Positions 6,467 through 56,530 of a DNA stretch of 64,000 nucleotides are shown here, one piece after another. The notes beneath the pieces were generated by a model. The model did no database searches. It saw nothing but the letters and a program-made list of their open reading frames with translations, and was not told the origin of the DNA. The DNA is from Candidatus Moranbacteria bacterium UBA1362 (GTDB lineage Bacteria > Patescibacteriota > Minisyncoccia > Moranbacterales > GWC2-37-73). The stretch's first letter is position 1. Each line of letters starts with the position of its first letter. The stretch is from positions 8,133 through 72,132 of the forward strand of contig DBRS01000004.1 in the NCBI GenBank assembly GCA_002306085.1. The letters run 5' to 3'. The position numbers were made by a program, and so were the translations under genes.

Positions 6467-8536
6467 ATGAAAAAAAACAGCCTTAAATCTCTTTTTAATC
6501 CCGCTTCGATCGCGATTGTCGGCGCATCGGGCAAAAAAGGAAAGATCGGGAACATAATCATGGAGAACATCATGAAGCTCGGATATGGTGGAGATGTTTT
6601 TTTGGTCAATCCTTCCTGCAAATTCATAAAATTCAAACGTTGCCATCCTTCGCTTGGTTCGATCGGAAAAAAAGTTGATCTGGCGATAATTTGCGTGCCG
6701 GCAAAATTTGTTATCGACGTCGTAAAGAACGGAGCCAAAAATGCCAAAAATTTCGTGATTATATCGGCAGGTTTTTCGGAAACGGGAAAAGAGGGAGCAA
6801 AAAGAGAAAAAGAATTGCTTGCCATTGCCAAGAAAAACAACATCAACATCCTTGGTCCGAATTGCCTTGGTTTCATTGTTCCAAAAATTGGACTCAATGC
6901 GTCCTTTGCCGCGGGAATGCCCGATGCTGGGAACATAGCGTTTGTTTCTCAGTCGGGAGCGCTTGCTGTGGGGTTTATGGATAAGGCCAAAGAGGAGCAC
7001 CTTGGATTTTCAAGTGTAATTTCAATCGGAAACAAGATGCAACTCGGGGAAAGCGAGCTTTTGGAATATCTTGCCGAAGACAGAGAAACGAAAGTGATCG
7101 GCATGTATCTTGAAGGCATTAAAGACGGGAAAAATTTTTCCGAAATTGCCAAAAAAGTTTCCGCAAAAAAACCGATTGTAATTTTGAAAGCCGGCAAAAC
7201 CGCAAAAGCGCAGCAGGCAATTTCCTCGCATACGGGAGCGCTTGCGGGAAGCGATGAAATCACAAGCGCCGTTTTTGAAAAAATAGGCATCATGCGAGCC
7301 GATAATCTGGATGAGTTTTTTGATTTGCTTCAGCTTATTTCTTTTACCGACGCGCCGAAAAGCAAAAATGTCGCCGTAGTTACCAACGCGGGCGGCGCCG
7401 GAGTTCTTGCTACTGACTCTTTCAAGGGCAAAGAAATAGAGCTTGCGGAGTTTGTGAAAAATGAAAAGGAAAATCTTAGAAGAAATCTTCCTGCAGAAGC
7501 ATCGGTTGAAAATCCTGTAGATCTTCTCGGTGATGCCGAAGAAATCCGCTATCAAAAAACATTGGAAATTCTCAATAATGAAAAAATGGGATGCATATTG
7601 TGTCTTCTTACTCCGCAGCAGCAGACTCCAGTCGAGAAAATTTCAGAAATACTCAAATGTGAAAAGGCAAAAAACAAAGCGCTCATTGCAGCTGTTTTTG
7701 TGGGGGGAGAGAGGGTTGAAGATTCGATTGCCGACCTTAAGAAAAATAATGTTCCGTGCTTTTCCGATCCGCAAAGCGCTGTCGATGCAATTGATAAATA
7801 TTACAAGTGGAACGTTGCCGAAAAGAGTGCTCCTAAAAAACTTGCTGAAAAAAATTCTCTTGAGCGCAAAAAGCAATCGAATGAAATTATTTCAAAAGCT
7901 CTTGCGGATGGAAGAAAAGCTTTGTTTTTTCCGGAAGCTTCCGAAGTGATGGAAAAGTTCGGAGTAAAATGCGTTGAATCTTACGGAATAAAACCTGGTG
8001 ATGGCGTGCCTGAGATAAAAAATTATCCCGTGGTTCTCAAGGTGGACAGCGATAAGGTTTTGCACAAGTCCGATAAACAGGCGCTGATTTTGGACATAAA
8101 AAACAAGGAGGCTCTTGAATTGGAGCTGAAAAAGCTTAGAAAAAATTTTCCCGATGAGCATTTCGTGGTGCAGCCGATGATGGAAAGAAAAACGGAAATA
8201 ATTTTAGGCATCAAAAAGGACGCGATTTTCGGTCCGGTTGTTGTCTATGGATTGGGAGGAATATATACAGAAGTCTTTAAGATGGTGGATTTCTTGGTTC
8301 TGCCGGCAGATTTTGACGAGATTAAAAAGAATGTCATGAAAGGGAAACTGCGCTTTTTGTTTGAAGGCGCAAGAGGCCAGGCTTCGTACAATATCGAGGA
8401 GTTTGCAAGGATTCTCAAGGGAGTTGCTGATTTTGCCAGAAAAAACGACAAAGTTAGAGAGTTTGATGTGAATCCGCTTTTTATCTATAATGACGGAAGA
8501 GAGGCTCTGGCGGCGGACGTAAAAATAATTCTTTAA
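6467..8536 (+). CDS. Acetyl-CoA synthetase (ADP-forming) / acetate--CoA ligase, fused alpha-beta (CoA-binding + ATP-grasp)
   Basis: N-terminal CoA-binding Rossmann region (SIAIVGASGKKGKIG) and succinyl-CoA-synthetase-like domain. 689 aa, consistent with ADP-forming ACS (NDP-forming acyl-CoA synthetase family). Confidence 0.75.
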   Translation: MKKNSLKSLFNPASIAIVGASGKKGKIGNIIMENIMKLGYGGDVFLVNPSCKFIKFKRCHPSLGSIGKKVDLAIICVPAKFVIDVVKNGAKNAKNFVIISAGFSETGKEGAKREKELLAIAKKNNINILGPNCLGFIVPKIGLNASFAAGMPDAGNIAFVSQSGALAVGFMDKAKEEHLGFSSVISIGNKMQLGESELLEYLAEDRETKVIGMYLEGIKDGKNFSEIAKKVSAKKPIVILKAGKTAKAQQAISSHTGALAGSDEITSAVFEKIGIMRADNLDEFFDLLQLISFTDAPKSKNVAVVTNAGGAGVLATDSFKGKEIELAEFVKNEKENLRRNLPAEASVENPVDLLGDAEEIRYQKTLEILNNEKMGCILCLLTPQQQTPVEKISEILKCEKAKNKALIAAVFVGGERVEDSIADLKKNNVPCFSDPQSAVDAIDKYYKWNVAEKSAPKKLAEKNSLERKKQSNEIISKALADGRKALFFPEASEVMEKFGVKCVESYGIKPGDGVPEIKNYPVVLKVDSDKVLHKSDKQALILDIKNKEALELELKKLRKNFPDEHFVVQPMMERKTEIILGIKKDAIFGPVVVYGLGGIYTEVFKMVDFLVLPADFDEIKKNVMKGKLRFLFEGARGQASYNIEEFARILKGVADFARKNDKVREFDVNPLFIYNDGREALAADVKIIL

Positions 8537-8605: not shown

Positions 8606-9181
8606 ATGGACAAAAAAACAAAAATTTTGCTTGTTGACGACGATGTGAATTTGCGCCAAATGTACGCAGAGATATTTAAGAATTCAGGCTTTGAAGTTGT
8701 TGAGGCCGGTGACGGAGTTGAAGGACTCGACAAAGCTTCCAAAGAAGCTCCGGATGTAATTTTTACCGGAATAATTATGCCGCGCATGGATGGTTTTACC
8801 ATGATGGAGGCGCTCAAAAAAACCGTGATGACGGCAAGCATTCCGGTGGTAATTTCTTCGCACATGGGCCGAGAAGAAGATCAGCAAAAGGCCAACGCTC
8901 TGGGTGCGAAAGATTTCATAGTCCGTGACATAACGCGTCCGATTGAAACTGTGGAAAGAATCAGGGCTTTGTTTATCCAAGAAGGAGGAGAATATAAACT
9001 TGAGTTTAGTGCTGACAGAATGGATGCTCCGAAACTTGCAAAAGACTTGAGTTTTAATCCGACTTTCAACTGTCTGGATTGCGGAACAACCATTTCTCTT
9101 AATCTGAAATTGATAAATAAAAAGGATCGTATTTTTGAAGCAAAATTTGTTTGTCCTAAATGCGGATGGGAAGCTAAATGA
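8606..9181 (+). CDS. Atypical response-regulator receiver (phospho-acceptor Asp replaced by Gly) fused to a C-terminal zinc ribbon
   Basis: REC fold (KILLVDDD...; PDVIFTGIIMPRMDG aligns to DLVLLDxxMPxMDG with D->G at the acceptor). C-terminal CLDCG...CPKCG zinc ribbon. Confidence 0.7.
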   Translation: MDKKTKILLVDDDVNLRQMYAEIFKNSGFEVVEAGDGVEGLDKASKEAPDVIFTGIIMPRMDGFTMMEALKKTVMTASIPVVISSHMGREEDQQKANALGAKDFIVRDITRPIETVERIRALFIQEGGEYKLEFSADRMDAPKLAKDLSFNPTFNCLDCGTTISLNLKLINKKDRIFEAKFVCPKCGWEAK

Positions 9182-9302
9182 TGTATATAGTGTTTGGTAT
9201 ATAGTGTTTTGTATAAAATTTCACAGGGCATTGGAATTTGCTATTTTCCGTTTTTTATTTTTTGAACCGTATATACAAGATGCTAGGTACCGTTACAAAT
9301 TT

Positions 9303-11021
9303 ATGCCTCGATGGATTTTGTCTGAAAAGGAAGAAATTGCGAAAATGCCAAACTTGAAGCTGCATCCTTTGTTAGTGCAGCTTTTGTTTTCCCGTGGAAT
9401 TAAAACAAAAGAAGAAATCGAAAAATTCGTTTTCCCTGACTATGACAGAGACTTCCATGATCCTTTTTTGTTCTCTGACATGGAAAAAGTTGTCAAAAGA
9501 ATAGAAAAAGCCCGGGAAAAAAAAGAAAAAGTGGCCATTTTCGGTGATTATGATGCCGATGGAATCACCGCTTCCGTAATCATCAAGGAAACTTTGGATC
9601 TTTTAGGAATCGAATCTTTCACCTATATTCCCGACAAGATGAATGAAGGCTATGGCATGAATGTCGCGGCAGTGGAAAAATTTGAAAAAGAAAATGTTTC
9701 GCTGATAATCACGGTTGATTGCGGAATCACGAACATTGCCGAGGTGGAAAGAGCCAATTCTCTCGGGATAGATGTCATAATAACAGATCATCATCATATG
9801 CCGGAAAAAATTCCCGAGGCTTTTGCTGTGGTTGATCCGCACGATCCCAGATCAGAATATCCTTTCAGAGATCTTGCCGGAGTTGGAGTTGCGTTTAAAG
9901 TCGTGCAGGCCGTGTTTCAGAGGTTGCTGGAAGATAAGATTCAGCAAACCAAATGGATGCTTGATCTTGTGGCCATAGGCACAATTGCCGATTGCGTGCC
10001 GCTGGTCGGGGAAAACAGATTGTTTGCCAAATATGGTCTTATTGTTCTTTCGAAAACAAAACGCGTGGGCCTTAAAGAATTGTTTTCTGTGGGAAGAATC
10101 AATATTAACGAAAAGAATTTGCCCGACACTAGAAAAATTTCTTTCTATATTGCTCCCAGAATCAATGCTGCCGGAAGAATCAAGCATGCCAATCTTGCCT
10201 ATGATCTTATTTTTGAAAAAGACGTCGCGAAAGCGCGAACCTCGGCGCTTGAAATCGAGGCGCAAAATTCGGAAAGACAAAAAGTAACCGAGAAAGTTGT
10301 GGAAGAAGTTTCCATTCTCGCTCGCAGCGCTTTTAAAGACAAGAAATTTATTTTTGCCGCAAGCGAACATTTTCCCATAGGTGTTTTGGGGCTTGCTGCA
10401 GGAAAAATAGCTCAGCAATTTTTAAGGCCGGTTGCTATTTTTCGCAAAGATGAAGATGCAAGTACCGGCTCTTTTCGCAGCATCCCGCAGATAAATATCA
10501 TTGAAACGATCGGTAAATTTGGCGGCATGCTCATGAAATTCGGCGGACATTCTCAGGCTGCCGGTGCGACCATCAAAAATGAGAATTTTGTCAAATTCTG
10601 TGAAAAAATGAGCGAAGAAATTGAAAAGAAGCTCAAGGATTGTGATTTTTCCGAAGAAATTTTGGTTGACGCGAAAATTGATGCGAAAGATGTGGATTTT
10701 GCCCTGGTTGATGATATTGAGAAATTGAAACCTTTCGGCGAAGGCAACAGGGAGCCGGTTTTTATGATAAAAAATTTGACAGTGCGCGAAACAAGAATCG
10801 TAGGCAACGGAAACAAGCACATAAAGCTTTTCCTGGCTTGCGAGAATGAACCAAAAATATTTGAAGCGATCAGTTTTAACGGTTATGAAAAATTTTCGCA
10901 CATAAATGTCGGGGATAAAATTGATATTTTGTGCAATTTGCAAAAAGATGAATGGAATGGAAATATAAAGATACAATTTACTCTGATTGATGCGAGAGTT
11001 AGTCAGAGTAAGAATTTTTAA
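9303..11021 (+). CDS. recJ: Single-stranded-DNA-specific exonuclease RecJ (DHH/DHHA1)
   Basis: DHH motifs (AIFGDYDADGITAS, ITVDCG, ITDHHH) and a C-terminal OB-like region. The ORF-track start at 9135 overlaps the upstream gene, so ATG 9303 (or 9345) is preferred. Confidence 0.9.
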   Translation: MPRWILSEKEEIAKMPNLKLHPLLVQLLFSRGIKTKEEIEKFVFPDYDRDFHDPFLFSDMEKVVKRIEKAREKKEKVAIFGDYDADGITASVIIKETLDLLGIESFTYIPDKMNEGYGMNVAAVEKFEKENVSLIITVDCGITNIAEVERANSLGIDVIITDHHHMPEKIPEAFAVVDPHDPRSEYPFRDLAGVGVAFKVVQAVFQRLLEDKIQQTKWMLDLVAIGTIADCVPLVGENRLFAKYGLIVLSKTKRVGLKELFSVGRININEKNLPDTRKISFYIAPRINAAGRIKHANLAYDLIFEKDVAKARTSALEIEAQNSERQKVTEKVVEEVSILARSAFKDKKFIFAASEHFPIGVLGLAAGKIAQQFLRPVAIFRKDEDASTGSFRSIPQINIIETIGKFGGMLMKFGGHSQAAGATIKNENFVKFCEKMSEEIEKKLKDCDFSEEILVDAKIDAKDVDFALVDDIEKLKPFGEGNREPVFMIKNLTVRETRIVGNGNKHIKLFLACENEPKIFEAISFNGYEKFSHINVGDKIDILCNLQKDEWNGNIKIQFTLIDARVSQSKNF

Positions 11022-30189: not shown

Positions 30190-30756
30190 GTGACAAGAAC
30201 TTTTGTCATAATTTTGTTTGCATGTGCTTTTAGTTTTTTGGCGTAGTCATGCGATGACGACGACAATTGTGAATTCTGCGGCCTTGATGATTGCAGCGGG
30301 GATTGCGAAAGATCGGCAGAAATATCGTATGACTCCGAATCCAACGTGTTGACAGTTTTCTTCCCGACGGATAGCGAGGGAAACTTTGTGAATTTTGTGA
30401 AATATGGCGAGCCGGCAACGCTCGTAATTGATGAGTGTGATGAGTTTCCCCAGCCGAACCTTGAAAACGATTGCGAGGGAGGATGGCCGGAAGCTGATCC
30501 GAATGTTCCGGGTCTTCCGGGACATTTCCTCGATGAGAACACTGCCATATTTTATCTGGAAAAGGACGGCGGAATCGGGCTACCTGCGCTCATCAGCGAT
30601 GGAGTCATCTATAACGTCAATATTGACATGGTTGTTTCGACAGGAGGCCCGATCATAAAAAGCAAGGAGAATAGTGACGGCCTGCTCTACTGGGAAACTG
30701 CCCAAATTGATGGAAATATCAATCATGAATTTTTTTGTGACAAGGAAGATCACTGA
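30190..30756 (+). pseudogene. Lipoprotein gene interrupted by an in-frame TAG (signal peptide, stop, Cys/Asp-rich mature domain)
   Basis: GTG 30190 with good RBS encodes VTRTFVIILFACAFSFLA, then TAG at 30244-30246. The same frame continues SCDDDDNCEFCGLDDCSGDCE... into ORF 30346-30756. Confidence 0.4.
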
Positions 30757-30793
30757 AATTGTGACGGTGTGCAAAACACACCGTCTTTTAATA

Positions 30794-30822
30794 TTGACAT
30801 TTATTGAAATTTGGAGTATAAT
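30794..30822 (+). promoter_or_regulatory. Consensus sigma70 promoter TTGACA-N17-TATAAT
   Basis: ttgaca at 30794-30799, 17-nt spacer, tataat at 30817-30822. Drives the lipoprotein gene at 30884. Confidence 0.6.
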
Positions 30823-30883
30823 TAAGGGTTGGATCATTTACAAAAAAATAAATGGCTTTACCAAGCCAAAAGGGAGGGATAAC

Positions 30884-31822
30884 ATGAAAAAGATTGTCGA
30901 AGTTGCAGGCTTTTTGCTCTTACTGGTGTTGGTTTCATGCGGCGGCGGAAGCAGTCATGATGATGGTGGCGGAAATACGAAAGTTTTTCCCAGCGTAAAC
31001 ATAACGCAAGACGAGCTCGACAATGCCGTGGCAAAGCTGGAAGTTTTTTCCGACCACGGCGTGTTCTATCCAGCCATGGTGGGCGAATATATCGTCCATC
31101 TATCCGACGGTGAGCAGGAATGCTATGCCGACAAAAACGAGATCGCGGAGATTTACTGGAATGACGAGTTTGGTGGATTTCACGCGGTCGATCCTGAAAA
31201 GGGATTGAAGCTCGAATGGGACCCGGAAAATCCGGTGCTTGAAATTCCGGGAGAGATCGCATCATCGGGAGCCACCATCAGTTTTGTGCTGAATGACGGC
31301 AGGGAGCTTTCCATCATAACCGATGAGAAGTGGCTCGTTTTCGAATGTGAAGAAGGCATGTTCGCCAAAGTTACGGAAAACGGGCTCATATGCATCGGCT
31401 ATGACGATGGGATTGCTCCACCCCAGACATTACCGGAACTCACCAAGATCGAGATAAACACAGTGACCGGAACGATCCAAATCACTCCAGGTTTCCAGAA
31501 CGGAAAAATTTTCTACCTGGTTGATTCAAATCCGGTGGAAACTGTATGCGATTCTGACGGAAACATTACATCCGAATATGAAGTCGCATGGAACGATGTG
31601 TATTCCTGGTATCCCACTCGCGGGATTCTTGCTGATCTTGCGTTGCCGCAAACGTTGATTTTGAATGCGGCAAATGCAGCAGGATGCGGGGAGGGCATGC
31701 CTTACCTCGTAAGGCCTGATAGGTCATATGTCTCGTTCAACACTGAAAAATGCATTGTGTTTGTTGACGGAGTGGATGTAACCGCAACTGCCATAGGCAG
31801 CGACGGACTCATTCACTATTAA
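30884..31822 (+). CDS. Hypothetical lipoprotein (secreted, Gly/Asp-rich N-terminus)
   Basis: MKKIVEVAGFLLLLVLVSCGGGSS: signal peptide with lipobox LVSC. RBS agggaggga. Upstream extension of the ORF track is judged spurious. Confidence 0.6.
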   Translation: MKKIVEVAGFLLLLVLVSCGGGSSHDDGGGNTKVFPSVNITQDELDNAVAKLEVFSDHGVFYPAMVGEYIVHLSDGEQECYADKNEIAEIYWNDEFGGFHAVDPEKGLKLEWDPENPVLEIPGEIASSGATISFVLNDGRELSIITDEKWLVFECEEGMFAKVTENGLICIGYDDGIAPPQTLPELTKIEINTVTGTIQITPGFQNGKIFYLVDSNPVETVCDSDGNITSEYEVAWNDVYSWYPTRGILADLALPQTLILNAANAAGCGEGMPYLVRPDRSYVSFNTEKCIVFVDGVDVTATAIGSDGLIHY

Positions 31823-31883
31823 AATCGAAGGCGGGTTGTGCAAATTTGCGCAATCCGCCTTTTAAAATATTTAAGGCAGGGTA

Positions 31884-31912
31884 TTGACAAAAATTGATTT
31901 TTGTACTAATAT
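31884..31912 (+). promoter_or_regulatory. Sigma70 promoter TTGACA-N17-TAATAT
   Basis: ttgaca at 31884-31889, tgtac-taatat at 31907-31912. 30 nt upstream of the ATG at 31943. Confidence 0.5.
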
Positions 31913-31942
31913 AACCTGTTAAGTATATAAATCGGTAACAAT

Positions 31943-32641
31943 ATGCAATTTAATCAGATTTTACCTTTAATAAGGCTCAAATTGGCCGGGATCATAATGT
32001 TCGGTCTGCTTGTTGCCGCTTTTTCTTTTCTTGCGCTTGTTGTGAAAGAAAAGAATTTCAAGGTTAATACGGCATATCTTATTGTCCAAAATCAGGGATT
32101 GAATGAAGATTATTACACTCTTTCCAAGTCTGCCGAATATGTCGGGAAAGTTCTTGGCGAAGGAATTTATAGCGAGCTGTTCATCGACGAGGTTTTGAAA
32201 ACAGGCAAAGTAAATCCTGAATTTTTGCCTTTCGACAAAAAAGAAAAAATGAAAGAGTGGGGCAAGAATGTTGAAGTTAGACGCAATCCGGATCTCGGAA
32301 TCATGAGCATTGAAGTTTTTGATAACGGACAGGGCCAGGCTCTTGCCGTCTCAAATGCCATAAGCGAGGTATTGATTTCAAAAAACAGTCAGTTTTTGGG
32401 AGAAGGGAAAAACATAAGCATCAAAATTATTTCAGGGCCGATTCTTGAAAAGAATCCGTCCATCGAAAACATTTCCGCAACAGTAATGGGAGGCTTTGTG
32501 TTGGGGATAATGTTCAGCGCTCTTTGGATAATATCCAAGGAAGAAAGGAGAATGAGAAGAATTTTTTCCGTGAATACTGCAAAACGCGCAGAAAACGATG
32601 GCGCCGAGGAATATATGGAAAGCTTGAATTATATCAAATAA
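31943..32641 (+). CDS. Polysaccharide chain-length determinant (Wzz/PCP-like) protein, putative
   Basis: Topology TM, soluble domain of about 150 aa, TM (GGFVLGIMFSALWIIS), short basic tail. Resembles Gram-positive CpsC/Wzz-type co-polymerases. Confidence 0.45.
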   Translation: MQFNQILPLIRLKLAGIIMFGLLVAAFSFLALVVKEKNFKVNTAYLIVQNQGLNEDYYTLSKSAEYVGKVLGEGIYSELFIDEVLKTGKVNPEFLPFDKKEKMKEWGKNVEVRRNPDLGIMSIEVFDNGQGQALAVSNAISEVLISKNSQFLGEGKNISIKIISGPILEKNPSIENISATVMGGFVLGIMFSALWIISKEERRMRRIFSVNTAKRAENDGAEEYMESLNYIK

Positions 32642-32810
32642 AATGCATATAATTGCAAGAAGTATTGTCAACAAAATAATCTTTCTTGAAATTAAATTAT
32701 TTTGGGTGTATCGGGAATTTTTGTCAGGCAAGAATTTCCGCATAGGCTCGAAATAGGTTCGGGTCAGTAGCTTGAAAAAATACGCGTAAGCGAGAGAGGG
32801 AGGAGATATC

Positions 32811-33602
32811 ATGAAGAGGATCATATCGATTTTGGCAACAACGGTCTTTCTGGCGGCGCTGTTTTCTGGAAGCGCCATGGCAACGGGTGAGGAATTGGTC
32901 ATTTCCGAGGAACAGGCTCAGCCCGCGAAGGTTTGGGGAAGTTTTCCCGAAGCCTCAATTTGGGCGGGAGCCTGGATAAATCCGAAAATGGACACTCAGG
33001 GGTTGTGGGCTACTGCAAAGTATCTGGAGTGGTTCACAAAGTATGAAAAACCCGAAAACTTCGGCATCGGTGCTAAAGTTCGCGGAGATTATGGATGGAA
33101 ATCTATGGATGGTTCTGATCCTAATTGGAGCTACTATGCTCCCGGTCCGTCTGTGGGCTATTACCGCGGACTGACTCTTCGCGATTCAATTGAAGCGGAT
33201 TTTTCATTGCTATATCGCTTCGACAAAAATCGTGATGACGGATTCATGCCGGATCTTCATGCGGAGTATAATCGGATTTTGGGCTACAAAAATCGGCTGA
33301 CACTCCAAGTGGATGCGGTTTACTTTGAAGACGATAGCTGGGTTGGTCCTGGTGCATATTTGCATCACAGACTGAATAAAGACTGGAAAGTAATTCCTGG
33401 TGTCGGAGCGAGTTTGAGCTGGATTGATGGAGACTATATCTCCGGATTCCAGCCGTCGCTCAAGTTCAAGTATCGCAACAAGTGGACAATCGGCGCAACA
33501 GCCAACCTGTTCACAGGAAACGGTTCGTTTTTTGGGATTGTCGCGGCGTATGAATTTACGCCCGACATAAACACATGGTACGAAACAAAGAAAGCTCGTT
33601 GA
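32811..33602 (+). CDS. Secreted hypothetical protein (signal peptide), aromatic-rich, possibly beta-rich
   Basis: MKRIISILATTVFLAALFSGSAMA signal peptide. Mature part rich in W/Y/G with alternating hydrophobic pattern. Confidence 0.45.
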   Translation: MKRIISILATTVFLAALFSGSAMATGEELVISEEQAQPAKVWGSFPEASIWAGAWINPKMDTQGLWATAKYLEWFTKYEKPENFGIGAKVRGDYGWKSMDGSDPNWSYYAPGPSVGYYRGLTLRDSIEADFSLLYRFDKNRDDGFMPDLHAEYNRILGYKNRLTLQVDAVYFEDDSWVGPGAYLHHRLNKDWKVIPGVGASLSWIDGDYISGFQPSLKFKYRNKWTIGATANLFTGNGSFFGIVAAYEFTPDINTWYETKKAR

Positions 33603-33622
33603 GAGCGCAAAAGGAGGTAGAA

Positions 33623-34699
33623 ATGAAAGCACTACGTTTATTGGTCCTGTGTTTCGTCGCAATCGCGCTTTCAACAAGCGCGATGGCATACACCGAACGG
33701 CTCACGTCGCCCGCAAGGGTTGACGCTGATCTGGTGGACGTGAATGGAAAGAAGTATATTCGCTTCACCTTCACACACACAAGCGCGGCTGATACGTGGC
33801 ACGATACACTTGTTTCTTTCTGTCCGGATCCGCTACGGGAAGGTTGTGATAACAACATTCCATTCAGCATAACAAAGATGGAATGCACAACCACCATGAT
33901 CTGGGACATTCCGCTCGAGGTTATCGCCGGAGGTCAGAGTGCTGTGAACTGGGCCTGTGATGAGGACTGGTTCAACACAAAATGGCTATTCCTTCCGGAT
34001 TGCAGAAACCTTACGGTAGGTCGGAATCTCATTTACTATAAGAGTCTTCCTGATCCGATGATTCCGAAGTCCGGCGGCATGCATCTTTTGTATGTCGGTC
34101 CGGGAGCGCCGTTTGTTCCCGCGTCTGATGATCCGAGATGGTTCAGGTGCGGAGGATATTGCGCTCCTTCTGCACCACCTATTGTGATTGCGCCTGTTGT
34201 TCCGGCGCCGGTACCTCCCGTGGTGAAGCCTGCAGAGCCTTGCAAAAAGCCGGCTTCGCCGAAGTCGATCTGCGACGAACCCTGCATACAGCAGATCAGT
34301 GAAGACACTTCGGCAACACGTGAATCAGTTGGTGTCATTGATAAGACTGAACCGGCTGATGAGCAAAAGTTGCAGCAGAAGGCCCGCAAGACTCTTGCAA
34401 TTTCCAAACGTGTGGAAACAAACACCAGTACTATTATTGACCAAAACAACCAGACTAATGACAAACTGGGGACGCCCAAGGGGGAAGGTCAAACGCTTTT
34501 CTCCGAGCTGGATGACGTTAAAGGGGGTGTAACCATTATACAGAATCAAGTGGATACAAAATTCAACGAGATAAAGGCTCAGGTATCCACAAGTTTCTGG
34601 GACAAATGGTGGTTGCTTATACTAGCCATAGCAGCTGCCATTATCATATTAGCCACGTGGGGGCTTACATGCTACTCTGGTGTACGCATAAAGGATTAG
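33623..34699 (+). CDS. Surface protein: signal peptide, Cys-containing globular domain, Pro-rich linker, C-terminal TM anchor
   Basis: MKALRLLVLCFVAIALSTSAMA; PIVIAPVVPAPVPPVVKPAEP linker; C-terminal WWLLILAIAAAIIILATWGL. RBS aaggagg before ATG 33623. Confidence 0.55.
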   Translation: MKALRLLVLCFVAIALSTSAMAYTERLTSPARVDADLVDVNGKKYIRFTFTHTSAADTWHDTLVSFCPDPLREGCDNNIPFSITKMECTTTMIWDIPLEVIAGGQSAVNWACDEDWFNTKWLFLPDCRNLTVGRNLIYYKSLPDPMIPKSGGMHLLYVGPGAPFVPASDDPRWFRCGGYCAPSAPPIVIAPVVPAPVPPVVKPAEPCKKPASPKSICDEPCIQQISEDTSATRESVGVIDKTEPADEQKLQQKARKTLAISKRVETNTSTIIDQNNQTNDKLGTPKGEGQTLFSELDDVKGGVTIIQNQVDTKFNEIKAQVSTSFWDKWWLLILAIAAAIIILATWGLTCYSGVRIKD

Positions 34700-38661: not shown

Positions 38662-39819
38662 ATGAAAATAGCATTTATCGGACAAAAAGGCATACCAGCA
38701 AAGTCGGGCGGTATCGAAAAGCATGCTGAAGAGATGTCGGCGAGGATGGCCAAAATGGGTCATGAGGTTTTTGTCTATGTCAGGAACAACTATACTTCCA
38801 AAAAAATGTCAAAATTTAAGGGAGTTAATCTTATTCATCTTCCCAGCATAGGTACGAAGCATCTTGATGCGATAAGTCATACTTTTTTTGCCAGCGTTCA
38901 TGCTTTGTTTTGCGGATATGACATTATTCATTATCACGGCATCGGACCGTCTCTTTTAAGCTGGATTCCGAAATATCTGACTTTCAGGACAAAAGTAGTG
39001 TCGACTTTCCACTGCCAGGATTATTTTCATCAAAAATGGGGATGGTTCGCGAGACTATCATTAAAAATCGGTGAATATATATCTTGCCATGTGCCGCACA
39101 AAACAATTGTCGTCAGCAAGTCGCTGGCTGAATATGTGAAAGAAAAATACAACCGTAACGCTTTCTATATACCCAATGGCGCAGACGTAAAAATATCCAA
39201 GAGAACCGACAAGATCAAGCAGTGGGAATTGAAAGAAAGAAAATATATCCTTTCACTGGGCCGGCTTATAAAGCACAAGGGTATACATTATCTTATAGAA
39301 GCGTTCAAACAACTTGAAGATACCGCAAAGACTCCAAACAATTTCAAGCTTGTGATAGTCGGAGATGGTTTTCATACTGACGACTATGTGCGTTATTTGC
39401 ACACCATTGCCTACGGTAGGGAAAATATCATATTTACCGGTGCGCAATCGGGAGAAACGGTGAGACAGTTGTTCTCGCACGCATATTTGTTTGTGCAACC
39501 TTCCGAATCCGAAGGGATGTCCTTGGCGCTTCTTGAAGCGATGGGATACGGCCTTGCGCCACTTGTCAGCGATATAAAAGAAAATGTTGAGGTTGTAGGA
39601 GAAGAGGGTGTAACATTTGCTTCGAAATCAGTGTCGGATCTTAAAAGCAAATTGGCGTATCTTTTGAGCCGTCCGGACGAAGTTGCAAAATTTGGAGAAA
39701 ATGCCAACAAAAGAGTCAGGGAAAAATACGGATGGGATTCGATTGCCCGCGAAACTCTTGAAGTTTACGAGGCAGCCATAATGAAAAACAATGAACACGT
39801 TGAAGCTAAAATTGGATAA
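38662..39819 (+). CDS. Glycosyltransferase family 4
   Basis: MKIAFIGQKGIPAKSGGIEKHAEE N-terminus and SESEGMSLALLEAMGYGLAPLVS motif. Confidence 0.85.
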   Translation: MKIAFIGQKGIPAKSGGIEKHAEEMSARMAKMGHEVFVYVRNNYTSKKMSKFKGVNLIHLPSIGTKHLDAISHTFFASVHALFCGYDIIHYHGIGPSLLSWIPKYLTFRTKVVSTFHCQDYFHQKWGWFARLSLKIGEYISCHVPHKTIVVSKSLAEYVKEKYNRNAFYIPNGADVKISKRTDKIKQWELKERKYILSLGRLIKHKGIHYLIEAFKQLEDTAKTPNNFKLVIVGDGFHTDDYVRYLHTIAYGRENIIFTGAQSGETVRQLFSHAYLFVQPSESEGMSLALLEAMGYGLAPLVSDIKENVEVVGEEGVTFASKSVSDLKSKLAYLLSRPDEVAKFGENANKRVREKYGWDSIARETLEVYEAAIMKNNEHVEAKIG

Positions 39820-40858
39820 ATGCAGATTTTCTTTGCAATTTTTTGCCGTGGCAATCATATTGTCTGTCACATCTTTTGTTTTACTTGCGGATGTGTTCAA
39901 GAAAAGCACATCTAGCATTACCATTTTGGTGAATGCAAAATCATCGGCGGCAATAAAACAACAGCAGATAGTCAACAATCTTGTTGAAATTCCAAACCTT
40001 CTCTCTTTTTATGACAGAATGCTTGCGGAAAATCCCGACGTCAGGGATGTTGCACAAGGCAAAAGTCCTGACGAAAGGAAGGCTATGTGGAACAGTATGC
40101 TGGAAACGGAAACTGTAGATGGAGATTCCTCAATGATTCGCATATCAATAACTGCCAACAAGGGATCTGACGCGCAACAACTCGTGCAGAAAACAACAAG
40201 AACGCTTTTAAACTTGGCTGGCATGTATTATGACGTAAGAGACGAGCTTGATCTTAGAATCATTGAAGGGCCAATTACTCGTACCGTGCTACCGGCGTGG
40301 TACTGGGTTATATTGCTTAGTGTCACACTTGGAATTCTCGTGACATTTATTCTGCAATCAGTGTTGTTGTCAATGGGGAAGGTGTTTGATAAGAAGAGGG
40401 TTACCCTTCCCAAAAAAGAATATCTTAGCTTCACGAGAAACGGAAATTTTTCAAAAGAAAGCGGAATAAAATCGCTTGAAGAATTATACAAAATTGAAGA
40501 ATCTGAAAAATCCTTTTTCGAGGATGCAAAGAAAGCTGAACAACGCAAAGAGGATTTTCTGAAAGAGAAAGGGATTGCGAAGGAAGAACACGCTAAAAGA
40601 AACGAAGAGCAGTTTTTCAAAGAAACATATCCAAACTTTCCTGAAGCGGTGGGCAATGTGCAACAAAAGAAAGCGGAGGCCCCAAGCAATCTGCCGGTTG
40701 CCAAAGATGCCGGTTTGCCAAAAGGAATTGCAGAAGGAAAAGGAAGCAAAAAGGACGGATTTGTGGAAATCGGCGAAGAAAAGAAAACCAATGTCGAGCG
40801 CGAACCAACTGATGAAGAGATCAAAAAGAGGCTGAATCAGCTTTTGAGGGGCAAATAA
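39791..40858 (+). CDS. Wzz/PCP-like chain-length determinant protein with acidic/basic C-terminal tail, putative
   Basis: TM (FFAVAIILSVTSFVLL), soluble domain, second TM (WYWVILLSVTLGILVTFIL), then a long K/E-rich cytoplasmic tail. Confidence 0.4.
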   Translation: MNTLKLKLDKCRFSLQFFAVAIILSVTSFVLLADVFKKSTSSITILVNAKSSAAIKQQQIVNNLVEIPNLLSFYDRMLAENPDVRDVAQGKSPDERKAMWNSMLETETVDGDSSMIRISITANKGSDAQQLVQKTTRTLLNLAGMYYDVRDELDLRIIEGPITRTVLPAWYWVILLSVTLGILVTFILQSVLLSMGKVFDKKRVTLPKKEYLSFTRNGNFSKESGIKSLEELYKIEESEKSFFEDAKKAEQRKEDFLKEKGIAKEEHAKRNEEQFFKETYPNFPEAVGNVQQKKAEAPSNLPVAKDAGLPKGIAEGKGSKKDGFVEIGEEKKTNVEREPTDEEIKKRLNQLLRGK

Positions 40859-47165: not shown

Positions 47166-48647
47166 ATGAAAAATAAACCGAAAATACATCTGGAAACACT
47201 CGAAGAATATAGCACATCCATACTTCGTTATATTGAATGGATGTTACGCAATTATTTCAAGGACGTAAAAGATATTACAATCGATGATATTAAAAAACAT
47301 GAGACGCAAATAAATGCATATGAAAATTTTGAACATCTGGAGCCGATAGACGAAAGCAAAATCATAATTCTTGATGATGAAAAAATAAATACCGCAAAAG
47401 CCGAAAATGCCATAATGAATGGAAAGATTTTGTGGGAGCATACTGCAGCCGGAGAAGCAACAAGGCTCGGACTGGGAACGAAATATCTTCTAAATCTTTC
47501 TCAATTTACCATTCCAGAAATAGTTTCGCACATTAAAAAAGAAAGGCTGGCCGAGGCAGAGAAAAAAGGATTGAAAGGCGCGGCTCTAGCCAAGGAAAAA
47601 AAAGTTATAAACAGAGAGGTTACGGAAAAAAACGTGTTAGAAACAACAGGTCAACGTCCTAAAAAGCTGATGAACATTTCTTTAGGCAACAGACACATGC
47701 TTCAACTTGCATTTGACATTTCTCAGCTTGCAAAGAAAAACAAGCTCAATCCGCGCAAAGTTCTTGCAAAACAAACAAATCTTGTCATTTTGAACGAACA
47801 GACAGTTGAGGAGATTTTGGAAGAATTTAAGAAATTTAACTTTTTTGGCTTTAATCCTCGGAAGGTTTTCTTTATGGTTCAACGCAGTTTTCATGGCACA
47901 TATATTAAGGAAGGGTGCCTGTACTATGATATAACAACTGAAAAAAATAAGCGTCTCCATAATCACGGGCAATTGATGATGCAGAAAGTTCATGACGGCA
48001 TGTTCTTTTGTGTTGATCCCAAAAATACCAGCAAAAGAAAATATCTTCTAAACGGAGAACTCAGAGAAATTCTCAAAAGACATGACGATTTGCTCTGCTA
48101 TAACGTCGAGGATTTGGGATATCTGACTTGCTCAATAGACCTTCCGAGTCTTTCATTGGCTTTGGATCTTGGAAGAAAAGATTACAATATGGTGATGGAA
48201 ATTGTGGCGCAAAATCCCATAAAACCCCAGAAGGGAGGAGCATGCTTTTATGACAGAAAACTGGGCAGGGTTGTTATGATTGAAAGCAATCAGCTGAAAA
48301 ATATAAAAAATGAGGATATCAAGCACCTTAACAAGAATTTCAACCATTTTCCAAATCCGTTGAAATTCTTCGATGTTTTATCTGAAAAAGCTTTGCCAAT
48401 AACTTTTGAGGTAAAAAGCACATTTAACCAAAGCGGCGATCCTTGTGATTATATATACGCCAATCCTCCGCAAGGAAATATTAATTTTCTTGTAAAAACC
48501 GCATATGTAATGCGCAAAAACCTGAAACCGATTTATAGCTGGAAATCGCCTGCAACAACACCGCTTGCAGTAAAATCCATGCTTGATCAAGACAAACAAA
48601 AAGGTTTTGAACAATTTGTAAAGGTGACAAAAAGGAGCAGGAAATAA
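47166..48647 (+). CDS. UDPGP-family (UTP:sugar-1-phosphate uridylyltransferase-like, eukaryotic-type) nucleotidyltransferase, putative
   Basis: WEHTAAGEATRLGLGTKY resembles the LxGGxGTRLG pyrophosphorylase loop of UAP/UGP enzymes. Size of about 490 aa fits. Confidence 0.4.
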   Translation: MKNKPKIHLETLEEYSTSILRYIEWMLRNYFKDVKDITIDDIKKHETQINAYENFEHLEPIDESKIIILDDEKINTAKAENAIMNGKILWEHTAAGEATRLGLGTKYLLNLSQFTIPEIVSHIKKERLAEAEKKGLKGAALAKEKKVINREVTEKNVLETTGQRPKKLMNISLGNRHMLQLAFDISQLAKKNKLNPRKVLAKQTNLVILNEQTVEEILEEFKKFNFFGFNPRKVFFMVQRSFHGTYIKEGCLYYDITTEKNKRLHNHGQLMMQKVHDGMFFCVDPKNTSKRKYLLNGELREILKRHDDLLCYNVEDLGYLTCSIDLPSLSLALDLGRKDYNMVMEIVAQNPIKPQKGGACFYDRKLGRVVMIESNQLKNIKNEDIKHLNKNFNHFPNPLKFFDVLSEKALPITFEVKSTFNQSGDPCDYIYANPPQGNINFLVKTAYVMRKNLKPIYSWKSPATTPLAVKSMLDQDKQKGFEQFVKVTKRSRK

Positions 48648-55504: not shown

Positions 55505-56530
55505 ATGAAAAAACAAATATGTAAAATATCTTTTCTTGCTATATTTTTAGGCATTTTCTGCTTTACAAATGAAGTTTTTGCACATAACAAACTTATATTT
55601 ATTCACCATTCCACGGGAGGATATTGGTTTGCCAATGCCAGCTCCACCGGCGGCGGCCTTGCGAAAGCATTGGACGACGTGGGTATATACGCTCGGGATA
55701 TCAATTATCAGCAATACAATAACGACTTCAATCCTCCGCAAAATCCAACCATTTCCAACAACACTGATATCGGGCATTGGTGGCTTTGGTTTGCCGATAC
55801 CACAATGCAAGCGAACGGCATTACCAAGCGCGACAACGTTATGGACGGAGAGAAGGGAGTATACAAGACAACAAACAAAACCAACGCGCACGGAACATAT
55901 ACAACCAACATGACAGATCCCGGAGGAGAAAACAATATCATAATGATCAAAAGCTGCTATCCTTCTGCCAATATCTATTCCGATAACAGCACAACTTTTG
56001 GACAAATGCGCGGACAAGGAGCAAGCTATACCGTCGGAGGTCAGAACGTAAACACTGTCAGCAATGTTAAAGCTCTCTATAACTCGCTTTTGGAATATTT
56101 CAAGACAAGAACGGACAAAATGTTTATTATCTCGTTTACTCCGCCTCTTTTAGCCTCAAGCACAACTGCGGAGAGAGCGGCAAACACTCGTTTAGTTGCC
56201 AATTGGCTTGTGAATGAATGGCTGCAAAGCGCCAATTGGGTAAATAAAAATGTCTATATTTTTGACCAGTTCAACGTACTTACCCATGAGAACAACAGAC
56301 ACACATATGAAAACGGCCAAGTTATTCACTACACTGATCCGGCAAGCGGCAATTATCTCGTATATCCAAGAAGTGCAAGCGACAACCATCCTAGCGGAGC
56401 AGGGCACCAGAAAGCTACCGCCAATTTTGTTCCACTTCTTCAACATTGGATAGCAACATACGAAGCTTTTGCAGCAGGTACAACTGACACAACTCCACCC
56501 GCAAACCCAACCGGACTTTCCGTAAACTAG
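55505..56530 (+). CDS. Secreted putative SGNH-like hydrolase ending in conserved PTGLSVN tag
   Basis: Signal peptide ISFLAIFLGIFCFTNEVFA. DNHPSGAGHQKATANF resembles SGNH block V (DxxHPxxxGxxxxA). C-terminus DTTPPANPTGLSVN-stop. Confidence 0.5.
   Translation: MKKQICKISFLAIFLGIFCFTNEVFAHNKLIFIHHSTGGYWFANASSTGGGLAKALDDVGIYARDINYQQYNNDFNPPQNPTISNNTDIGHWWLWFADTTMQANGITKRDNVMDGEKGVYKTTNKTNAHGTYTTNMTDPGGENNIIMIKSCYPSANIYSDNSTTFGQMRGQGASYTVGGQNVNTVSNVKALYNSLLEYFKTRTDKMFIISFTPPLLASSTTAERAANTRLVANWLVNEWLQSANWVNKNVYIFDQFNVLTHENNRHTYENGQVIHYTDPASGNYLVYPRSASDNHPSGAGHQKATANFVPLLQHWIATYEAFAAGTTDTTPPANPTGLSVN

Follow-up and report, generated by a model that had tools for sequence, protein, structure and literature searches.

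Pseudo-receivers, i.e. receiver domains without the phospho-acceptor aspartate (also designated aspartate-less receivers, ALRs), account for 2-6% of bacterial receiver domains (PMC4395418; PMC12632262). Glycine represents 11% of the ALR substitutions at the acceptor position D (PMC4395418), and the Gly type was, as of 2015, the only major ALR class without a characterised member or structure (Maule et al. 2015, PMC4395418). In about 80% of pseudo-receivers, the second residue of the acidic pair (DD2) is non-acidic (Bourret et al. 2025, PMC12632262). Known pseudo-receiver mechanisms comprise constitutive activity, partner binding and ligand binding (PMC12632262): RitR, FrzS, ChxR, HP1043, AmiR, the CikA/KaiA pseudo-receivers and ShkA REC1 work independently of phosphorylation through dimerisation, partners, or the ligands c-di-GMP or quinone (PMC12632262). 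Here, we report on a gene for a Gly-type pseudo-receiver fused to a predicted zinc ribbon, termed ALR gene below, from a 64,000-nt stretch of Candidatus Moranbacteria bacterium UBA1362 (contig DBRS01000004.1). This whole stretch is referred to as the window. The ALR gene (8606..9181 including the stop codon and, as all features of the window given below, on the plus strand) starts with ATG and is listed as an intact open reading frame (ORF) of 191 aa.

The ALR gene product is a pseudo-receiver with an intact receiver fold, and our confidence in these statements on its identity is high. It represents an apparently undescribed family of Gly-type pseudo-receiver proteins that, judged from the sequences retrieved, is restricted to Patescibacteria. 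The ALR class itself is established; new are this family, its conserved remodelled pocket and its persistent genomic link to recJ and to the gene of an ADP-forming acetyl-CoA synthetase (ACD). Far from being isolated, the ALR gene occupies the centre of a conserved ACD - ALR - RecJ cassette, which was absent from an earlier note made on the window. From the signature and the gene context, we infer that the protein is a phosphorylation-independent adaptor or regulator functionally linked to RecJ, and assign this reading a probability of about 45-50%. A search of the searchable literature for a receiver-RecJ association, the DD/TG/SHxGR signature described below or a receiver plus ribbon architecture in Patescibacteria yielded none.

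An intact receiver fold

The receiver (REC) domain comprises residues 7-123 (8624..8974) and has a (beta-alpha)5 fold according to Pfam, AlphaFold2 and Foldseek. Pfam Response_reg (PF00072) matches residues 7-110 with 73.7 bits (cutoff 30.2, E=1.7e-20). The best relatives by sequence in the PDB are single-domain receivers, e.g. Thermotoga RR468 (E=1.5e-20), and full-length homologues with 59-100% identity were found in a protein search at E-values down to 1e-109. The AlphaFold2 model, built on 75 homologues, has a mean pLDDT of 89 overall and values of 91-96 in the receiver part, where five strands and five helices form a flavodoxin-like fold. Its top Foldseek matches are the receivers of RpaA, RR468 and PhoB; RR468 and PhoB superimpose with an rmsd of 1.0-1.4 A over about 120 residues at a probability of 1.00. 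The earlier note had called the fold intact, and these data bear it out.

No helix-turn-helix (HTH), winged-helix, GGDEF or other output-domain family was found in the protein by Pfam and NCBIfam scans. Models of PhoB, PleD and similar regulators match the receiver part only and score far under their own cutoffs. With neither a GGDEF nor a winged-helix domain present, an identity as OmpR-, PhoB- or PleD-type regulator was rejected. Databases list family members (P0001, P0047, P0056, P0069, P0080 and others) under names like 'PleD family', 'DNA-binding response OmpR family regulator', 'regulator of RpoS' or 'DUF1610 Zn-ribbon protein involved in translation', all of which are over-predictions from the receiver or from weak ribbon matches. 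PADLOC detected no defence system, just weak partial receiver-like matches.

The acceptor aspartate is replaced by glycine

Landmark positions were set by alignment to RR468 and to E. coli CheY. D11-D12-D13 (8636..8644) align to CheY D12/D13: D11 and D12 are the metal-binding acidic pair DD1/DD2 and D13 is an extra aspartate, so that the acidic pocket proposed before is present, and it is conserved family-wide. T54-G55 (8765..8770) occupies the phospho-acceptor region with a GGA glycine codon at the acceptor position itself, opposite RR468 D53 and CheY D57, and Thr at D-1. S85-H86-M87-G88-R89 (8858..8872) forms an SHxGR motif at T, T+1 to T+4 in the beta4-alpha4 loop, S85 corresponding to CheY T87. 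R107 (8924..8926) is found at the position of the conserved Lys in a gapless alignment to CheY K109. Further landmarks assigned by the alignment are P59 (D+4), G63 (D+8) and F104 (K-3). The claim that both the Ser/Thr and the Lys are conserved was therefore half right: the Ser is present (S85, 100%), the Lys is not.

Measured against a true receiver, the protein has the DD pair and the Thr/Ser at the end of beta4 and lacks both the Asp at the end of beta3 and the Lys at the end of beta5. A profile recognises the receiver and the acceptor Asp is absent, which defines an aspartate-less receiver. In the AlphaFold model, strand beta3 consists of residues 51-55. Since there is no Asp within or near the end of this strand, no alternative alignment yields an acceptor. 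D50 and D62 were considered and rejected: D50 is the Asp of the usual 'PD' ahead of beta3, D62 that of the usual MPxMDG, and both occur in canonical receivers, too.

With Arg at the K position here and varying residues there in distant relatives, two of the five phosphoryl-binding positions are degraded. Retained are the metal-binding acidic pair, the Ser, the aromatic switch residue F104, Pro at D+4 and Gly at D+8. New compared to ordinary receivers are an invariant His at T+1 and an Arg at T+4, both on active-site loops. Canonical His-Asp phosphotransfer would be impossible because an invariant Gly replaces the acceptor Asp and Arg or another residue replaces the Lys. Alignment, structure prediction and the family-wide conservation of G55 all agree with the earlier note in that the protein should not be phosphorylatable at the canonical Asp.

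A cognate kinase was sought in the neighbourhood as well. In a tblastn search of the 64-kb window with 91 long receiver-containing proteins (>450 aa), three of which were scanned by Pfam and all carry HisKA and HATPase_c, the ALR gene was the sole match. Pfam scans of 30 further ORFs of the window, among them ClpB, HtrA-like proteases, MurJ, LepA, glycosyltransferases, sugar-nucleotide enzymes, SHMT and CTP synthase, revealed no kinase. Likewise, no histidine kinase was found in the Pfam-annotated syntenic loci including L001. Within the window and these annotated loci, the gene is an orphan response regulator gene, as had been supposed. Seven plus-strand ORFs of the window (232-493 aa) without a Pfam match at E<=1e-5 lie within 30674-34699, 39791-40858, 47166-48647 and 55505-56530, amid genes for polysaccharides of the cell envelope (Wzy_C, GT4, DUF4012, beta-helix).

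A conserved signature across the family

Conservation was assessed in two protein sets. The close set (n=121) contains the query and the best 120 of 609 matches from 5.8 billion proteins; these 120 have 173-205 aa, 91-100% query coverage and 59-100% identity, and their named sources are Candidatus Moranbacteria, the Patescibacteria group, and 'uncultured bacterium' or unclassified 'bacterium' metagenome-assembled genomes (MAGs). The distant set comprises about 37 family representatives with 36-61% identity found by HMMER in an exhaustive search through 1.84 billion cluster representatives, in which the acceptor residue was not a selection criterion. G55, S85, H86, G88, F104 and the four Cys are invariant in 121/121 close homologues; T54, R60, R89 and D11-D13 are each conserved in >97%, and R107 in 115/121. 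The distant representatives have G55 in 36/37 cases (one Ser), S85 and G88 in 37/37, H86, F104 and D11 in 36/37, D12 in 34/37 and R89 in 33/37. The K position is free among them (20 R, 7 K, 4 Q, 2 H, others such as L or V). At D-1, all close and distant members have T or S.

A third set was obtained from metagenomic loci. D11 and D12 are acidic in about 100% of close, distant and metagenomic members, S85 and G88 reach 100% and R89 about 90-100% across the sets, and H86 is present in 102/102 metagenomic members. Conservation of the Gly in the metagenomic loci is circular and was not used as evidence, since the DNA pattern for their retrieval forces F[ST]GIxMPRMDGF. A contig scan with the generic pattern IxMP[RK]M[DSN]GF returned mostly ordinary receivers among 80 listed loci; L005-L010 are family members.

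As a background set, 384 receiver domains were taken from those 112 non-family proteins that resemble the family most, and the same model was used for their alignment. In this set, the acceptor column is D in 373/384 cases, D-1 is L in 279/384, the Lys column is K in 172/184 ungapped cells and T+1 is His in 12/384 (71/384 are gapped at this column). The family signature can be written as DD ... T-G ... S-H-x-G-R ... F. Because its conservation throughout the family contrasts with the background receivers, this signature is, as far as sequence comparison can tell, a product of selection and not of decay.

Genomic link to recJ

The upstream neighbour of the ALR gene (6467..8536) encodes a fused ACD of 689 aa with the Pfam domains CoA_binding_2, Succ_CoA_lig, Ligase_CoA_2 and ATP-grasp_5. 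The downstream neighbour (9303..11021) encodes the 5'-3' single-strand DNA exonuclease RecJ, 572 aa, with DHH, DHHA1 and RecJ_OB. The gene order in the window is DnaJ - ACD - ALR - RecJ - GT4 glycosyltransferase. ACD-ALR-RecJ is also found in L001-L004, L005-L007, in the long-form members P0150 and P0138, and in P0171. In all of L001-L010, L085, L088, L089, L207 and L208, recJ is located directly downstream. This is also the case where ACD is not the upstream gene and DnaJ (L009, L010), phosphoglycerate kinase (PGK; L089) or enolase (L207) takes its place. L207 encodes a tandem receiver form with 36% identity and a gap of 6 nt to recJ. In the genome loci, adjacency to recJ thus persists down to 36-38% identity with differing upstream genes. 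DnaJ is the upstream gene in L132, too; two of the three ACD alternatives, phosphoglycerate kinase and enolase, are lower-glycolysis enzymes.

A metagenome scan with the family-specific DNA pattern resulted in 117 loci, whose neighbours were called by tblastn. Loci were considered evaluable if they extended 500 nt or more downstream (n=90), and recJ was counted within 900 nt on the same strand. It lies directly downstream in 79/90 loci with a median gap of about 79 nt and an overlap in some; in several lineages, the gap amounts to 4-10 nt. ACD is located directly upstream in 65/85 evaluable loci (76%).

As a control for synteny decay, the metagenomic loci were binned by ALR identity to the query. 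At >=57% identity, DnaJ was found in 4/13, ACD in 30/30, RecJ in 26/27 and GT4 in 7/15 loci. The corresponding values were 2/16, 25/34, 31/39 and 1/18 at 50-57% identity, and 0/7, 10/21, 23/25 (92%) and 0/7 below 50%. The pairing with recJ outlasts the surrounding gene order, as RecJ is present in 23/25 loci below 50% identity, where DnaJ and GT4 are both down to 0/7. Two of the loci without recJ belong to one lineage (L121, 11793-12503; L142, 1455-2177), in which a predicted 3'-5' exonuclease of 236-240 aa (PF10108, DNA_pol_B_exo2) replaces recJ and begins 6 nt past the stop codon. The 'receiver plus DNA exonuclease' theme is, according to these predicted domains, one that survives the swap of recJ.

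Several points weigh against a functional link to RecJ. In 11 of the 90 loci, recJ is not downstream, and some of these family genes have UppP or genes for Fe-S assembly as neighbours. The loci do not represent independent cases in phylogenetic terms. Genomes of Patescibacteria are compact, and genes that lie side by side need not encode interacting proteins. The frequent adjacency of ACD offers an alternative partner. Furthermore, 121 nt with a weak promoter-like site separate the ALR gene from recJ in the window, so the two genes may not be co-transcribed.

The strongest competing explanation attributes the position next to recJ and ACD to inheritance of the gene order without a functional link, and regards the protein as a generic orphan pseudo-receiver with an unlinked partner, e.g. 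a constitutive 'on' or 'off' adaptor. DnaJ-ACD-ALR-RecJ-GT4 blocks are indeed syntenic among close relatives, all loci originate from one candidate phylum, and 12% of them have no recJ downstream. By contrast, inheritance alone does not readily account for the early loss of the outer block genes with divergence, for the constancy of recJ next to a varying upstream gene (ACD, DnaJ, PGK, enolase), for the very short gaps in several lineages or for the exchange of recJ for another exonuclease in one of them. We consider this explanation unlikely. If it applied and the adjacency were synteny only, the proteins would be one more orphan pseudo-receiver family.

The spacer between the ALR gene and recJ contains a repeat element (9183..9291). 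It is composed of a 14-nt tandem direct repeat, two copies of GTATATAGTGTTTG (9183-9210), and an imperfect inverted copy about 60 nt downstream (9265-9291). The same layout, a tandem repeat followed by its reverse complement, was seen in the spacers of L109, L140, L152, L165 and L170 with unrelated sequences. RNA folding of the spacer in the window gave no significant energy (z=-1.28). The element may or may not be part of the ALR-recJ system. In another lineage, one with long low-complexity N-terminal extensions, a conserved ORF of 66-77 aa that ends with ...AQD(Y/I)(D/E)C(S/E)W is located between receiver gene and recJ (L208, 4868-5068; L085, 5264-5497); the records list no Pfam match for this ORF.

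A predicted C-terminal zinc ribbon, dispensable in some lineages

The C-terminal domain of about 65 aa (8984..9178) is predicted from its Cys pattern and AlphaFold topology to be a C4 zinc ribbon composed of a strand, a helix and a beta-hairpin with two CxxC knuckles. C156/C159 (CLDC, 9071-9082) and C183/C186 (CPKC, 9152-9163) are the sole four Cys residues of the protein, spaced as CLDC...22 residues...CPKC. In the AlphaFold model, they bracket the hairpin with strands 164-171 and 176-182, which is preceded by one strand and one helix. The assignment as a C4 zinc ribbon instead of an HTH output, put forward from the sequence alone, agrees with this predicted topology and with the lack of any HTH family. 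No Pfam, NCBIfam or PDB sequence family was found for the domain; PDB profile matches to tandem C2H2 fingers and generic ribbons were spurious and rejected as homology. Foldseek retrieved nothing at E<=0.001: the best match has E=0.19, and there is a weak resemblance to the ribbons of TFIIS, Rpb9, NrdR and MqsA. A profile of the domain found just two matches in the set of 5.8 billion proteins, both fragments of family members, so there is no evidence of further architectures with this domain, except for P0194, in which one or more canonical Asp-containing receivers are followed by a similar ribbon; this is one sequence on a 1.3-kb contig.

The Cys ligands are retained to different extents. All 121 close homologues have four Cys and none has two, one or zero. 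Among the 37 distant representatives, 16 have four Cys, 15 two, one a single Cys and five none. For the 105 metagenomic members, the respective numbers are 75, 16, 1 and 13. Degenerate ribbons are encoded e.g. by L007-L010. Receiver-only members of about 140 aa (L100, L134, L178, L181, L196) have an acidic stretch followed by the C-terminus ...PRTT[I/F] or ...PRQFI, a tail that may act as a short linear motif for binding. Both receiver-only and Cys-less variants still directly precede recJ. Other members carry a low-complexity N-terminal extension of 110-310 aa, and P0146 has two aspartate-less receivers in tandem. By its distribution among these sequences, the predicted C4 ribbon is lineage-specific, present here and dispensable elsewhere. 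It is probably not the essential 'output' of the family, because many relatives retain the receiver signature with two or no Cys or with a short tail.

These observations bear on a second alternative, in which the ribbon provides the DNA- or RNA-binding site and is just modulated or dimerised by the pseudo-receiver. The protein would then control transcription of recJ or of the ACD operon in a manner similar to NrdR or MqsA. Binding of nucleic acids is common among zinc ribbons, the domain weakly matches the ribbons of TFIIS, Rpb9, NrdR and MqsA in fold, the ribbon is invariant in the 121 close homologues, and a repeat/inverted-repeat element is located between the ALR gene and recJ. However, the Cys ligands are lost in 21/37 distant and 30/105 metagenomic members, and in some members the domain is replaced by a short tail, while receiver signature and recJ adjacency stay. 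Moreover, the fold matches are not significant, neither an HTH nor a known DNA-binding family was detected in the protein by Pfam and NCBIfam, and the intergenic repeats differ in sequence among lineages. A role as nucleic acid-binding regulator appears quite unlikely.

Proposed role and mechanism

In the favoured reading, the protein needs no phosphorylation for its action and is linked to RecJ as its adaptor or regulatory partner. Independence from phosphorylation is proposed because the Asp is missing and no kinase is encoded in the window. The process affected might be 5'-end resection, or degradation of single-stranded DNA for repair or nucleotide salvage. G55 would open a cavity that might be lined by D11/D12, T54, S85, H86 and R89. 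This remodelled pocket could accommodate a small anion, a metal or the side chain of a partner non-covalently, which would replace the covalent phosphoryl group. The pocket is presumably still in use, since both DD residues are retained, which is unusual among pseudo-receivers. S85 and F104, the 'Y-T coupling' pair that is retained, would pass on the bound state, and the ribbon, where present, would be an accessory interaction or contact module.

A different use of the same pocket is conceivable: H86 might be a phospho-acceptor, or the cavity might hold acyl phosphate or Pi non-covalently, so that substrate-level phosphorylation (ACD, PGK, enolase) would be linked to RecJ. DD, Ser and the Phe at K-3 are kept, and the new invariant His and Arg line the pocket. 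Upstream genes encode ACD (65/85), PGK or enolase. ACD works via acetyl phosphate and a phospho-His loop. This loop reads AISSHTGALAG (residues ~250-262) in the neighbouring ACD and shares ISSHxG with the beta4-alpha4 loop VISSHMGREED (8852-8881) of the receiver. However, we know of no receiver pocket in which a His is phosphorylated, and distant members do not conserve the K position. The likeness of the two loops shrinks to SHxG family-wide and is probably due to chance, because the Ser in front of SH is not conserved in distant relatives. Such a phosphoryl site is improbable. More speculative still would be the specific proposal that, via acyl phosphate or Pi in the Gly55 cavity or a phospho-His at T+1, the protein signals the status of substrate-level phosphorylation to the RecJ-dependent degradation of DNA or to nucleotide salvage, in organisms unable to produce nucleotides themselves.

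Finally, it can be dismissed with near certainty that this is an ordinary response regulator gene altered by a sequencing error or recently inactivated by mutation: the Gly is invariant in more than 150 independently assembled homologues with 36-100% identity, the homologous ORFs are intact, residues near the Gly have changed together with it and are themselves conserved, and neither an alternative alignment with an Asp nor a lineage-specific sequencing variant, the two objections the earlier note had raised against itself, held.

Several percent of all receiver domains are pseudo-receivers, and a mechanism is known for very few of them. The family described here is a clean, testable case with its DD/TG/SHxGR signature, an intact switch pair and RecJ as candidate partner. 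Patescibacteria have minimal genomes, few regulators and rely on scavenged nucleotides and DNA. If the link holds true, a regulator-like protein at RecJ, and often at the main ATP-forming enzyme, would provide a handle on the control of patescibacterial DNA processing.

Comparison with known systems

Canonical CheY-like regulators are the nearest relatives of the receiver part. RR468 is with 36-37% identity and an rmsd of about 1 A among the closest by both sequence and structure. Among CheY-like proteins of Patescibacteria, those of L011-L013 display 41-42% identity to the receiver part, those of L014 and L015 34-35%. Shared motifs are MPxMDGF, xLGxEDD and the alpha1 motif MY..F. By contrast, Asp, Thr and Lys are all present in the canonical proteins, which lack a C-terminal domain and whose genes do not lie beside recJ. 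From the canonical type to the present family, LLD has changed to FTG, LTN to SSH, Q at T+4 to R, and K to R or a variable residue. The sequences suggest that the family descends from the canonical single-domain CheY-like type: both the architecture of P0194 and the similarity to L011-L013 fit such an origin from an ordinary receiver.

With classical C4 ribbons (the TFIIS C-terminal domain, Rpb9/RPA12, the NrdR N-terminus and CPxCG proteins like HVO_2753), the C-terminal domain shares two CxxC/CPxCG knuckles around a beta-hairpin. It differs from them by an additional N-terminal strand and helix, by Cys ligands that are dispensable in many members and by matches that do not reach significance (Foldseek E>=0.19; Pfam below cutoffs).

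None of the characterised pseudo-receivers from RitR to ShkA REC1 combines Gly at D with SHxGR. Their outputs are winged HTH, ANTAR, coiled coil or kinase and not a zinc ribbon, none of them is linked to an exonuclease, and no sequence relation to the present family was seen beyond the receiver fold. The general properties of the ALR/PsR class are nevertheless shared: a PF00072-type fold without acceptor Asp and without a partner kinase, for which a mode of action by conformation, protein contacts or ligand binding is to be expected. The present family differs from this class in that it keeps both acidic DD residues, Pro at D+4, Gly at D+8 and the Y-T coupling pair, and adds an invariant His at T+1, an Arg at T+4, a fused small domain outside Pfam and a genomic tie to recJ.

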